Shown here: piece after piece, positions 1,428 to 5,746 of the stretch
Layout: each line of letters starts with the position of its first letter
How positions within the stretch are numbered: position 1 is the first letter of the stretch
Source: Candidatus Latescibacterota bacterium
Lineage (GTDB): Bacteria; Latescibacterota; CBDEFO01
DNA: 64,000 nt
Reading direction: 5' to 3'
Assembly: GCA_965237525.1 (NCBI GenBank)
Contig: CBDEFO010000003.1
Location: 64,001-128,000 of the forward strand
Program-made: the position numbers and the translations under genes
Notes under the pieces: model-generated
Databases searched by the model: none
The model's input: only the letters and a program-made list of their open reading frames with translations
Told to the model about the DNA's origin: nothing

Positions 1428-1891
1428 TCACTTGTCCATAGATCTGATTCTTGCGGACAGGACTGTTGCTATGTTTGTCATGACTTTAAGTGCGGCCTTC
1501 GGCTCCTCTTGGGCGAATTTGTCGTATTCTTCCTATTGAATATAAGGATCTGGGAGTCCACAGCAGCTTTTGCTTTGCCACTGCGGGCTCGGGTGTCTAC
1601 GAACGCCATATCTCCGAACATATGCCCTTGGTGCATTGAAATCACAAACTTCATGCCTTCGCCTCTATTTATCTGTATGTCCACAACCCCTGATCTAACA
1701 ATAAAGAGGGCGTCATTTAGCTCTCCCTGTTCGAAGACTTTTTCGCCCGCAGTGTATTCCACGTCCCTTGCTAGTCCTGCTAACTTATCCGCTTCTTCAT
1801 CGTTCAGGCCTCGGCCTAAATCTGTGGCTCTCAGAAATTCAGTCATGTCGTTCACATGTACCCCCAGTTTGAAAGAGGAGACTTGTACCAT
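1428..1891 (-). pseudogene. Cyclic nucleotide-binding domain protein, frameshifted near 1530
   Basis: FEQGE..LFIVRSG..FGDMAFVDTRARS CNB motif; the C-terminal helix EEYDKFAQEEPKAALKVMTNIATVLSARIR continues in another frame to the stop at 1428. Confidence 0.75.
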
Positions 1892-2414: not shown

Positions 2415-2552
2415 GGCAGAACACCGCCACTCGTGCGTGGCGGATGAATACCACTGGAGGAGGAGGGCATCTTCCAAGGGTGAGGTTTGAAGCCCCGCCC
2501 GCGGAGTGCCGATGTCGAGCCGCGCCGTAGGCGGTAGGCGACGTGGTTTCAC
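2415..2552 (+). mobile_element. Non-autonomous IS200/IS605-derived element (PATE-like)
   Basis: TTAT, then hairpin CCGCCAC-TCGTGC-GTGGCGG-ATGAAT (left-end like); GAAGCCCCGCCC...GGTTTCAC (right-end like); no tnpA/tnpB. Confidence 0.45.
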
Positions 2553-3490
2553 TCTGTCACCTGCTTGACGAGTCGGAACTTCTGAATGCGGTTATTCCCC
2601 CAATCTGTTACGTAGACGTTGTCGTCTTTGTCTGTTGCCACATCTGTCGGACGTTCGAACTTTCCGTCGCCGTTCCCCTTCCTTCCCCACTGGAGAAGGA
2701 AGTGTCCATCGCTGCCAAAGACCTGGATGCGGTGATTGTAAAAATCCGCTACGTAGATCCTATCTTCTCCGTCTAAGCCTATACCGGTGGACACGTTGAA
2801 CCTGCCTTCATCTGTTCCGTAACCTCCCCAGCTCGTAAGAAGTTGCCCTTCACGCGTGAACTTGACAATCCTATGATTGTAGGCGTCAGCCACGTAGACA
2901 GTACCGTCAGAACCGACAGCTAGATCGGTGGGGTAATTAAATTGTCCGTCGCCTTCTCCGTGCTCTCCCCATTGACGGACGAATTCGCCATTTCTATCAA
3001 ACTTTTCTATCCTGTAGTTGTAGAAATCAGCTACATAGATATTCCCCTGGCTGTCCACAGATACGCCCGCCGGGGCGTCAAAATAAGTGTCCTCCTCTTG
3101 CCGCCGGCCAATAGTCCCGATAGAACTCCCGGAGGGGTTGAAGACCTGTATCCTGTCGTTGAAATATTCTGCTACATAGAGCTTACTATCCTTCATTTCA
3201 ATATGCATGGGACGCGCAAGCTCTCCACGGGCATTGCCCTCTTTTCCCCATTCGGCTAGGAAATTGCCCAGTATGTCAAACTTTTGAATGCGATTGTTCC
3301 CACTATCGGAGACATAGACACTTCCGACATCGTCAACAGCGATCCCTATAGGGCCCTGGAACTGCCCTGGCATTTCTCCTTCTGTTCCCCATTTCTGGAC
3401 GAAGACGAATTGCAGTTTGTCCTCTTTGGAACAGTAAAGATGGCCTGTCGAAAGGATCAATATTATCAGCGACAAGATTGGTTGTCTCAT
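2549..3490 (-). CDS. Secreted/lipoprotein NHL-repeat 6-bladed beta-propeller
   Basis: Signal peptide plus six repeats of P.GIAVD..G.VYV.D..N.RIQKF. Confidence 0.9.
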   Translation of the reverse strand: MRQPILSLIILILSTGHLYCSKEDKLQFVFVQKWGTEGEMPGQFQGPIGIAVDDVGSVYVSDSGNNRIQKFDILGNFLAEWGKEGNARGELARPMHIEMKDSKLYVAEYFNDRIQVFNPSGSSIGTIGRRQEEDTYFDAPAGVSVDSQGNIYVADFYNYRIEKFDRNGEFVRQWGEHGEGDGQFNYPTDLAVGSDGTVYVADAYNHRIVKFTREGQLLTSWGGYGTDEGRFNVSTGIGLDGEDRIYVADFYNHRIQVFGSDGHFLLQWGRKGNGDGKFERPTDVATDKDDNVYVTDWGNNRIQKFRLVKQVTE

Positions 3491-3503
3491 ATTTTCCCTC
3501 TTG

Positions 3504-3782
3504 TCAAAGTATCCTCGGCAACCACATGACGATCACCAAGGCGGTGGAGACCCATACTACAAGCACGCTCAGTCTGTGCCCGTGCCGCTTTACGTACACC
3601 AGATAGTGCGCTCTTGCCAAAAGCAGGACAGACAGAGTAAGCAAGAAAGGATAAAACTTTATCGCAAGGAACCTTGCAGTAGCTACCCCTGCTAACCCGA
3701 GCAGGGCAAAGATCGCCGGGACTATTCAACACCAGGGCAGTGCCGCAAGAAGGGCCATCAGGCTCGATGCCTTTGTCTTCAT
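3504..3782 (-). CDS. MerT-like heavy-metal membrane transporter with in-frame UGA (candidate selenocysteine, CU motif), 92 aa
   Basis: MKTKASSLMALLAALPWC[TGA 3726-3728]IVPAIFALLGLAG...LPRIL*; three hydrophobic segments; UGA at the second Cys of the MerT CC pair; fills the operon gap; not in the ORF track. Confidence 0.75.
3687..3706 (-). promoter_or_regulatory. Putative bacterial SECIS hairpin
   Basis: mRNA CCCUGCU-CGGGUU-AGCAGGG, 7-bp perfect stem starting 20 nt after the UGA, G at loop position 2. Confidence 0.6.
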
Positions 3783-3794
3783 TGTTCTAATACC

Positions 3795-4334
3795 TTACTT
3801 AGTAGCAGAGGACAACATCTTAAACTGTCCAATAGACAGGACATAAGGATGCCCCGCATGGCCTTCGACTTTTTCCTTGGAGAGCGTGCCAGTTATCCGA
3901 AGGAGCTTGTCCTCGCCTTTGAGCGCCTCTTTGACCTTCTTCAACTGCTCGTTCTGAGCGATCAGAAAGACGTTCGCGTTCTTTGCAAACTTTAAAACTG
4001 TTCTGCCATTATGCTCGGATATACGGCCTTTAACCGTAATCGCGATGTCTCTTGGGGTAAAGCCGCCGTCCACCACAGCCTTCTTTACATCTTCGATGGA
4101 GAGGTTCTTTTTCTCCTTCACAGTCAGTTTGGCTACTCCCTGATCCACTTTGATCTCTAACTTCTCAACCCCTTCTACTCTCTTGAGCTTCTTCTCCAAG
4201 CCGTAGGCGCAAAAAGGGCACGAAAGACCGTCCACCTTAACTGTAGCCTCTTCTATCTGAGCCGGACTCTCCACAGGTACAGCCGACACAATAATAACTG
4301 AGAGCAACAAAGAAAGAATTCTTTTTATCGTCAT
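3795..4334 (-). CDS. Periplasmic heavy-metal-associated (HMA/MerP-like) domain protein
   Basis: Signal peptide, VDGLSCPFC metal motif, C-terminal extension. Confidence 0.85.
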   Translation of the reverse strand: MTIKRILSLLLSVIIVSAVPVESPAQIEEATVKVDGLSCPFCAYGLEKKLKRVEGVEKLEIKVDQGVAKLTVKEKKNLSIEDVKKAVVDGGFTPRDIAITVKGRISEHNGRTVLKFAKNANVFLIAQNEQLKKVKEALKGEDKLLRITGTLSKEKVEGHAGHPYVLSIGQFKMLSSATK

Positions 4335-4384
4335 CTTGAAACGACCTCCTTTTAACTTTACAGGTTAATATTGAGACTTTAGGA

Positions 4385-5330
4385 CTAAAAGATCAGCCAT
4401 CGAATCCCGCTTACAAAGGCAAAGTCCCTCCCAAGTTGGGTGCCGTTCAGGTCCTGGAGCAGGGGGATCTGTATCGATGTATCGATGATTAATGTGCTCA
4501 GAGGGATGTATTGTATCCCGGGAGAGAGACAAAATGTGTCCGCCGGAGTCCTCGACTGTCTGTCCACTTGCCTCGTTCCTCCGGTTGAACTGCCCGTTTG
4601 CCTCTAAATAAAGAGTGGCACAAGACGATGGATAGGTCTCATAGACCGAAGGATATATTCTGTATCCGACCGCAAGATCGTAATTTAAAGCATCTCCGAA
4701 TCTGTATTCGTCCTCCTCCCTTTTGAATGTGTAGATGGCGTCTGTGTTGATCCCGAGTCTTCCTACGCTGTGGGTTAAGATAAGTCCGGCTGAGTAATCT
4801 ATGGAGCCTGTTCCCAATTGTAGCCCTCTGGGTAGAGGTTCGCCCAACTCATCGATCTCGTCGTGGTCTCCGATGGGAAGTTTCAGTCCTCCCTTAAACG
4901 TAATTCTGGTCGTCTTTCGATGAGCGTCCCGTTGAAGGAGTTGATATTTGAATAAGAGAGAAAGATCCCCAAAGCCGCTGTCAGACAGAGTGCGTCTTAT
5001 CCCGCCCTGAACGAGACTCATCTCCTTATCCAGATACGGGATCGCTGCGGCGACTACCATTCTGTTTGGAATCAATTCGTAGGGAATTATAATAGGAACA
5101 GCCACAACTTGTACCTCACGGTCCAAAGGATCAGAGACTTTCGTACTACCCTTTAAGAGCTTCGATTTCTTTGTCGTTTTAACGAACGTCCTGAGCGCAG
5201 CACCCTGGAGGCCGACCACGAACGCTGTCTCAGTGTTGATCGGTGGCCCCTGAGCAAATGTCCCATTTGGATAAACCATATGAAGAACAACAGAGCACAT
5301 AACAGATAACAAAACGATGTATCTTCTCAT
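4385..5330 (-). CDS. Outer-membrane beta-barrel transporter (MetA/phenol-degradation-like), frameshift near 4520
   Basis: Signal peptide; GFGDLSL and QLGTGSID motifs; the true C-terminus SPGIQY...GIRWLIF lies in ORF 4385..4567. Confidence 0.7.
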
Positions 5331-5376
5331 AGACACCTCCTTCCTAAGATTACTCCTAAGACCCTCTGACATTTCG

Positions 5377-5673
5377 TTATCTTGCGAACTTATAGATGAT
5401 GTCCATCAATTGGTCGTATATTCTATCAGCCTCTTGGCTGTCTTGCGACCTGATGGAATTGGTGACACAATTTTCCAGGTAGTTTCTCATCATAATCTTT
5501 CCCACCTGCTTTAGACCCTCCTCTGCCGCTGCTATTTGGGTCAGTACCTCCACGCAAGGGCGCTCCTTTTCTATCATGCCCTGTAATCCTCTCATCTGGC
5601 CTTCAATAGATTTAAGGCGTCTGACTGTCTGGTCCTTGCGATCTTGTGAGATTAGCTTGATTTCTACGATCAT
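5377..5673 (-). CDS. CsoR/RcnR/CstR-family metal- or sulfur-sensing repressor
   Basis: RLKSIEGQMRGLQGMIEKERPCVEVLTQIAA...YLENCV. Confidence 0.9.
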   Translation of the reverse strand: MIVEIKLISQDRKDQTVRRLKSIEGQMRGLQGMIEKERPCVEVLTQIAAAEEGLKQVGKIMMRNYLENCVTNSIRSQDSQEADRIYDQLMDIIYKFAR

Positions 5674-5689: not shown

Positions 5690-5746
5690 TACACCCCCAC
5701 CCCCTGAGGGTATATAGAATATAAGAAACAACTTTAGCGATGTCAA
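5690..5746 (-). promoter_or_regulatory. Sigma-70 promoter with CsoR-type operator
   Basis: TTGACA-17-TATATT, followed by TATACCCTCAGGGGGTGGGGGTGTA (TAC/G-tract/GTA). Confidence 0.7.

Follow-up and report, generated by a model that had tools for sequence, protein, structure and literature searches.

A predicted selenocysteine codon in a short MerT-like membrane protein gene of a bacterial heavy-metal operon

An in-frame TGA in a MerT-like gene

A heavy-metal operon in the window, by which we mean the whole stretch of 64,000 nucleotides analysed here, contains a small gene with a TGA codon in the middle of its frame. This raises the question of whether the TGA interrupts the gene or encodes selenocysteine (Sec), and, if the latter holds, what a Cys-Sec pair would do in a membrane protein of this kind. 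The original prediction, made from the sequence of the window, had described a 92-codon frame between an HMA and an NHL gene with a TGA after a Cys codon as its sole interruption, and translation agrees with it. The frame of 92 residues runs from 3782 to 3504 on the minus strand, closes in a TGA stop and holds one internal TGA (3728-3726) directly after Cys18, in the context PWC-TGA-IVP. The HMA gene stops 12 nt before it (3795), and the NHL gene starts 13 nt after it (3490). The operon has the order promoter, CsoR-family repressor, PF13557 barrel-type gene, HMA protein, MerT-like gene and NHL protein, and its features are as follows.

5718..5746, minus strand: sigma-70-like promoter heading the operon, matching the consensus at 11 of 12 bases (consensus scan)
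5377..5673, minus strand: CsoR/RcnR-family repressor (PF02583, E 4e-23)
4365..5372, minus strand: MetA-pathway-like (PF13557) protein, predicted outer-membrane barrel (PF13557, E 4e-11)
3795..4334, minus strand: 179-aa HMA-domain (MerP/CopZ-like) protein (PF00403, E 3e-7, above cut-off)
3504..3782, minus strand: gene for the 92-aa MerT-like membrane protein (translation, NF033560, hydropathy, low-confidence AlphaFold model)
3729..3731, minus strand: Cys18 codon TGT, first residue of the putative Cys-Sec pair (sequence)
3726..3728, minus strand: predicted Sec19 codon TGA (alignments; 11 of the 15 subfamily loci with TGA; X2 and X4 contigs)
2549..3490, minus strand: 313-aa beta-propeller protein with NHL repeats, closing the module (PF01436, E 1e-48)

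The codon at 3726-3728, singled out beforehand as one to check, reads TGA in independent assemblies as well. For this comparison, assembled contigs rather than raw reads were used. The contig of run X2 covers 3400-4400 with 4 differences, all of them listed and none at 3726-3728, and that of run X4 covers 3400-3992 without any difference from the window. Because the contigs of these two runs, which belong to separate studies, agree, the TGA codon is not an assembly error. In the more distant run X6, 22 differences were found over 3400-3796, with none at the TGA codon among the 18 listed; the contig of run X9 has the TGA codon outside its coverage. No RNA run was listed among the sequencing runs, a negative that carries no weight in either direction.

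Distribution of TGA and Cys among homologues

A HMMER search of 1.84 billion representatives yielded 79 relatives at E<=0.001. The full-length ones mostly read PWCC, and several start just past the site, as would be expected if gene callers had taken a TGA there for a stop. With a profile search, 187 proteins were retrieved at E<=1e-8; among 100 newly listed proteins, 96 have PWCC, 3 have another CC and 1 starts past the site. This tally is no estimate of the ratio of Cys to TGA, since full-length entries in protein databases can only be Cys forms. The relatives are unnamed there, the few given names being 'hypothetical protein', so that with these labels and the starts past the site annotation has overlooked this class of genes.

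We therefore rely on 15 distinct loci of the subfamily that were read as DNA, 11 with TGA and 4 with Cys at the second position. Four of the TGA loci belong to the window's phylum (the window, G001, G063 and G064), in which 168 genomes were searched and the subfamily is present in 4. Four more come from the class of a Binataceae genome (G168, G432, G724 and G727; 301 and 401 genomes searched) and three from metagenome contigs (L033, L034 and L035), the metagenome scan having used one pattern downstream of the TGA codon and returned 5 loci. The Cys loci are L031, L032, G726 and G568. Thus the alignment of homologues at this codon, which had been proposed as a check, shows TGA in other lineages and Cys in others, with the TGA loci spanning two phylum-level groups plus the three metagenome contigs, down to 34% identity. 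The TGA is preceded by Cys in 7 loci, by Asn in 2 (L034 and L035), by Arg in one (G724) and by another TGA in one (G727), and the frame past the TGA is intact in 10 of the 11. Excluded from the count were canonical Cys-Cys MerT or MerT-HMA loci (L013/L021, L016-L020, L022-L024 and L026), two weak matches without stops (L029 and L030) and duplicates (L009=L012, L010=L028, L011=window, and L025, the second half of L015). Searches for relatives in viral contigs and plasmids found none.

Some individual loci deserve description. In G727 (G727:C5:2147-2419; L037:1543-1548), TGA-TGA occupies both Cys positions (PW-U-U-LLP) in an intact frame; the hairpin described below is present as elsewhere, with an 8-bp stem, and the genome has selA. 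This gene is a candidate for tandem selenocysteine, known from a single genome without read confirmation, and a second tandem-TGA gene was not found in 56 genomes of the order of G727. The divergent Asn-TGA loci (L034:3917-3982 and L035:937-1002) match the window's hairpin at 20 of 20 bases. The neighbourhood of L034 is a different one: the locus has a CUAEP/CCAEP-tail radical SAM (seleno)protein in its vicinity (NF040546, above cut-off) and is followed by a diaminopimelate-decarboxylase-like gene. In the Arg-TGA locus (L039, G724:C30:6033-6308) the hairpin is conserved, and the downstream barrel-type gene is apparently broken or fused in the assembly. Finally, the database protein P0014 has a Cys-Cys MerT-like domain fused to a barrel-type domain like that of the module, either a fusion or a gene-calling artefact.

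A hairpin downstream of the TGA

The perfect 7-bp hairpin that the original prediction had placed 20-39 nt past the TGA was found on the minus strand at 3706-3687.

3687..3706, minus strand: predicted bacterial SECIS apical hairpin (fold; pairing in TGA versus Cys loci; base identity)

Spanning +20 to +39 relative to the TGA, it has 7 Watson-Crick pairs that close a 6-nt loop; the second loop base is a G, and GG is conserved in the loop. We estimated how often such a structure occurs by chance in 20,000 TGA triplets sampled from the 157,275 in the genome. A comparable hairpin, with at least 7 Watson-Crick pairs and a loop that starts between +17 and +37 and has a G as its first or second base, follows 0.73% of the sampled triplets, or 5.5% if G-U pairs are allowed. 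When the same amino acids were recoded at random with synonymous codons under a crude codon model, a stem this long arose in 9 of 1000 sequences. The 21-nt hairpin is more stable than its shuffles (z -2.82), and the wider region of 50-90 nt gave no folding signal beyond shuffles (z 0.53, -0.09 and 0.02).

Comparison across loci was more informative. With a 7-bp stem imposed on a MAFFT alignment of the 15 loci, 90.9% of 77 stem cells are paired in the 11 TGA loci versus 42.9% of 28 in the 4 Cys loci, and pairing in the TGA loci falls to 35-64% when the stem is slid by 1-3 columns. Of the 11 TGA loci, 9 form a stem of 6-8 bp in these alignment columns, as against 0 of 4 Cys loci; in the remaining two TGA loci, L015 and L033, the stem in this register is weak, and L015 is frameshifted downstream of its TGA. 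At L010, the stem is three bases closer to the TGA than in other loci. At the level of bases, 18-20 of the 20 hairpin positions are identical to those of the window in 7 of the 10 other TGA loci, against 11-13 in the Cys loci. L035 is among those sharing 18-20 bases, yet its protein is 34% identical to that of the window. The GC-rich L034 (66% GC) retains a TTA Leu codon within the hairpin, and in G727 the encoded Leu has changed to Ser with the stem retained. The hairpin hence tracks the TGA: loci with TGA retain it, and loci with Cys have lost it. The window gene has the 3' stem-loop with a G in the apical loop that is expected of a SECIS, without two-sided compensation: among the loci, no two-sided compensatory change was seen in the stem, only U-A to U-G at two pairs. 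A shuffle control gave 500/500 and is thus uninformative, and the stem overlaps a stretch of conserved peptide.

Monophyly of the 10 rows with TGA, relative to 32 rows with Cys, was rejected (AU test p 0.0004) in a tree with the motif masked and L015 left out, in which 22 of 52 inner branches are unresolved. Because the near-identical hairpin sits in scattered branches, these data suggest that Sec is ancient in the family and was lost repeatedly, with the qualification that the tree is unrooted and that the peptide itself constrains the sequence.

Selenocysteine machinery and the reading of the TGA

The genome of the window (G000; 4.58 Mb, 96.6% complete) was searched for the machinery of Sec insertion, and all components looked for scored above curated cut-offs: selA with 575 bits (cut-off 268), selB with 366 (242), selD with 363 (125) and tRNA-Sec with 70 (47). 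The selD gene itself contains one in-frame TGA. Since selA is common across the groups concerned (131 of 168 and 89 of 121 genomes), its presence in all 8 of the 8 TGA-bearing genomes lends weak support. As for the genomes with Cys forms, G726 has selA and G568 has no selA match. With the machinery encoded and an in-frame TGA that aligns to a Cys of homologues and is found in other genomes, TGA19 very probably encodes selenocysteine. The proposal that Sec replaces the second Cys thus gains from the agreement of TGA/Cys alternation, machinery and hairpin, and the three refutations named with it (a genome lacking the machinery, reads with TGC or TGT, homologues without TGA) failed.

Could the codon instead be a nonsense mutation in a pseudogene of a decaying operon? 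A change from TGT or TGC to TGA takes one base, the family is sporadic, as its presence in 4 of 168 genomes of the phylum illustrates, and L015 is frameshifted past its TGA. Moreover, the barrel gene upstream is frameshifted near 4521, where it has two bases fewer than runs X2, X4 and X6 and a same-genus genome. Run X1, possibly the source of the assembly, matches the window at this frameshift, which alters the C-terminus and occurs only in the window's strain. The same-genus genome, however, has an intact barrel gene along with the TGA, and decay is hard to reconcile with a TGA that recurs at this codon in 11 loci that are not monophyletic, with a frame intact behind it in all but one of them and with a hairpin that follows the TGA. 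We regard the pseudogene explanation as largely refuted and very improbable. Still a little less credible is a reading of the TGA as Cys or Trp, through an altered genetic code or leaky read-through and without selenium. Nothing specific speaks for it beyond Cys being the residue of the homologues, and it is opposed by the gene's own stop, a TGA 13 nt before the next start, by the finding that the only TCA-anticodon tRNA of the genome at the ARAGORN default threshold is tRNA-Sec, and by the conservation of the hairpin at SECIS distance.

The protein and its family

The best family match of the protein is NF033560 (merT_RC607) with E 1.1e-13 and 51.3 bits against a cut-off of 130, residues 2-88 aligning to model positions 1-90. 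At E<=0.01, this model matches 40 of 62 family members. NF045683 gave weak matches in 4 of the 62, and PF02411 matched neither the window protein nor any of the 62 members at E<=0.01. In the Atlas ranking, an unnamed 88-member cluster came first and a cluster with PF02411 MerT in 14% of its members second. A sequence search of the PDB for a relative of solved structure returned nothing significant (best E 0.42).

Hydropathy predicts three helices, with Cys18 and TGA19 inside the first hydrophobic stretch, and an AlphaFold model of low confidence (pLDDT 57.9) places helices at 6-39, 44-65 and 71-91. By the positive-inside rule, the basic residues of the N-terminus and of positions 65-70 point to a three-helix topology with the N-terminus inside. 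The vicinal pair typical of the first helix of MerT is present only if the TGA is read as Sec. A cytoplasmic Cys pair is absent: there is no Cys past residue 19, and 0 of 62 members have two Cys beyond position 30. Conserved instead is a segment R-A-H-Y-x7-G, with His in 34 of the 62 members. By these sequence comparisons, the window gene lies below the cut-offs of the named MerT families, is without two of their defining features and is to be placed in an unnamed short subfamily. Of the initial description, the link to MerT therefore stands with the NF033560 match; mercury is no more than a candidate substrate, as neither a cytoplasmic Cys pair nor a MerA above cut-off was found.

The operon and its relatives

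The HMA protein has the CxxC motif CPFC and a hydrophobic N-terminus; CopZ and MerP models stay below their cut-offs, and its AlphaFold model has a pLDDT of 58.9. Judging export from the N-terminal sequence, it is likely a periplasmic metal donor. We take the PF13557 protein to be an outer-membrane barrel. The CsoR-family repressor was aligned to 4m1p, 5fmn and 2hh7 and to a His-bearing paralogue from the same genome; it keeps both Cys, and a Tyr occupies the position of the His ligand in the solved CsoR and InrS. Because this conserved ligand is replaced, the repressor may respond to a signal other than Cu(I). The promoter scan found 9 sites versus 4.6 expected by chance, so that the match alone is weak. 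Immediately after the -10 box, at 5690-5716 on the minus strand, there is a C-tract/G-tract element with an AT-rich flank, which we take to resemble CsoR/RcnR operators.

Similar genes recur near the relatives. HMA and barrel-type genes are found there together with MerR-family or CsoR-family regulators, an HMA CxxC gene is adjacent in most loci long enough to reveal one, and an NHL-type gene follows the subfamily gene at L009, L031 and L032 as well. MerR-family regulators occur at L010, L027, L031, L032, L036, L037, L045 and L046. MerR regulators of the Hg type have three Cys. Three-Cys members of the MerR family were seen at the Cys loci L031, L032 and L036 and in a mer cluster upstream of L015, and those beside four TGA forms in the class of G168 are without the middle Cys. 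Genes resembling MerC or MerF by motif are also among the neighbours, and L031 has a MerB-like gene below cut-off. In the window's genome, the best score against the MerA model TIGR02053 is 321.6, compared with a cut-off of 454.45, at the completeness given above. MerA above cut-off was found in 2 of the 6 TGA genomes tested, namely G063 and G168 and not G000, G001, G064 or G727. A MerB search gave no match in the window's genome, nor in any control genome. The heavy-metal setting that had been proposed for the gene is thus evident from the CsoR-type regulator and the barrel, HMA and NHL genes around it; from gene content the family travels with heavy-metal genes, with mercury detoxification at most a possible role of the window locus.

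Further observations concern gene content in and around these loci. At 1478-1891 (minus strand), the window encodes a cyclic-nucleotide-binding protein of 137 aa with another ending than its 154-aa counterpart at L009, probably another frameshift in the window's strain. In the same-genus genome (L009:3335-4907), the HMA and MerT-like genes are separated by two inserted genes, a further one of barrel type and another HMA gene, and run X6 has a similar insertion. Elsewhere in the window's genome (G000:C8:903396; L024), a canonical Cys-Cys MerT-HMA fusion adjoins the His-bearing CsoR-family gene, though no MerA above cut-off was found in this genome.

Proposed function

Our preferred reading, which we consider reasonably probable, is that the gene encodes a Cys18-Sec19 selenoprotein of the MerT superfamily that receives a soft metal from the HMA protein and conveys it into the cell. 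Insertion of selenocysteine at the TGA would depend on SelB, which would recognise the hairpin 20-39 bases past that codon. Selenolate binds soft metals more tightly than thiolate. The Cys-Sec pair in the predicted first membrane helix could then accept the metal from the neighbouring HMA protein, in a putative relay from the outer-membrane barrel via the periplasmic HMA CxxC to Cys18-Sec19 and on to the cell interior. This relay is modelled on the hand-over from MerP to Cys24/Cys25 of MerT, in which the cytoplasmic Cys pair receives Hg(II), as put forward in PMC5715351. His59 of the RAHY motif might replace the cytoplasmic Cys pair absent from the window protein, which is speculative. The metal may be Hg(II), as a tentative assignment, and another soft metal or metalloid is an equally tentative one, with Cu(I)/Ag(I) slightly less probable than either. 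Because no MerA was found in the genome, capture, import or sensing of a metal is a more probable task of the module than classical mercury reduction.

The Asn-Sec and Arg-Sec variants speak against the relay, as the pair of two ligands is not always retained. They retain the selenol only, which would suit a protein that is no transporter and uses the selenol, or a vicinal selenenyl-sulfide, as a membrane redox relay, a metal sink or a sensor. Such a role would also account for the missing cytoplasmic acceptor pair and for the lack of a MerA above cut-off in the window's genome, and it is in keeping with several neighbours: a thioredoxin-like gene that immediately follows at L014, one resembling AhpD at L031, the CUAEP-tail radical SAM (seleno)protein near L034 and, beside the four Sec forms in the class of G168, MerR-family regulators that lack the middle Cys of the Hg type. 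It fits less well with the kinship to MerT, with regulators that belong to metal-sensing families and with the adjoining HMA CxxC gene in most sufficiently long loci, which is what a hand-over of metal would call for. We consider this alternative unlikely, although far more credible than a pseudogene or a reading without selenium, and retain the transfer of a soft metal through Cys18-Sec19 as the preferred reading.

A wider interpretation, likewise doubtful in our estimation, would be that the subfamily is an uncatalogued branch of the MerT superfamily, in which an ancestral Sec and a near-invariant 20-base SECIS were lost repeatedly and in which the role of essential ligand falls to the selenol rather than to the Cys pair (Cys-Sec, Asn-Sec, Arg-Sec). 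In one genome, a single hairpin would then serve to decode two UGA codons in a row (Sec-Sec). Together with the barrel, HMA and NHL partners, this would amount to a soft-metal uptake that depends on selenium and is independent of mercuric reductase. To our knowledge, selenocysteine is very rare in transporters. The natural Cys-Cys, Cys-Sec, X-Sec and possibly Sec-Sec forms provide a ready-made small system for studying what selenium contributes to metal binding and transport.

Relation to known systems

The suspicion that Sec variants of mer transporters might already have been predicted proved right. MerT-family selenoproteins with Cys-Sec, for example WP_250634603.1, are in print (Haft and Gwadz, bioRxiv 10.1101/2022.07.06.499078); these authors were not aware of any selenoprotein among the characterised families of mercury resistance. 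ABB16073.1, a 'putative mercuric transport protein', is given with the motif C/SxxU (PMC9312934, PMC13188914), and the name is tabled as a selenoprotein family in PMC9312934, PMC13188914, PMC1976440 and PMC2398784. By contrast, mercuric or MerT terms are absent from the main texts of deep-Sep (PMC12013277) and BSepDB (PMC13326102). No description of the short subfamily with Asn-Sec, Arg-Sec or tandem TGA-TGA was found in the literature searched, and Haft and Tolstoy 2025 (PMC12013261) may cover the subfamily. The idea of a Cys-Sec MerT is therefore already known, and the variant forms of the short subfamily are what was not found in that literature.

Like the window protein, those of Haft and Gwadz and ABB16073.1 are MerT-like membrane proteins with a CU dipeptide and predicted selenoproteins, a comparison with the PWC-U subfamily that goes by description only; in the consulted portions of these publications, Asn-Sec, Arg-Sec, tandem Sec and an operon of the window's type are not mentioned. 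NF045683 (MerT_CopZ_Se, 235 positions) likewise stands for a MerT-type selenoprotein linked to an HMA/CopZ domain. In NF045683, however, CopZ is fused, whereas the window has a stand-alone 92-aa gene and HMA as a separate upstream gene, and the model (cut-off 375 bits) did not match the window gene, whether by hmmscan at E<=1 or in a search of the genome. MerT of the RC607 type (NF033560, 97 positions) resembles the window protein in its size, in the vicinal pair of the first helix and in a near full-length match; the window protein differs in its score below the cut-off, in the TGA as second Cys and in a genome without a MerA above cut-off. MerT of Tn21/Tn501 (PF02411, NF010314), which is accompanied by MerP and MerA, shares with it the Cys pair of the first helix and an adjacent HMA CxxC protein, but has the cytoplasmic pair Cys76/Cys82 and MerR, where the window protein has no such pair and its locus a regulator of the CsoR family.
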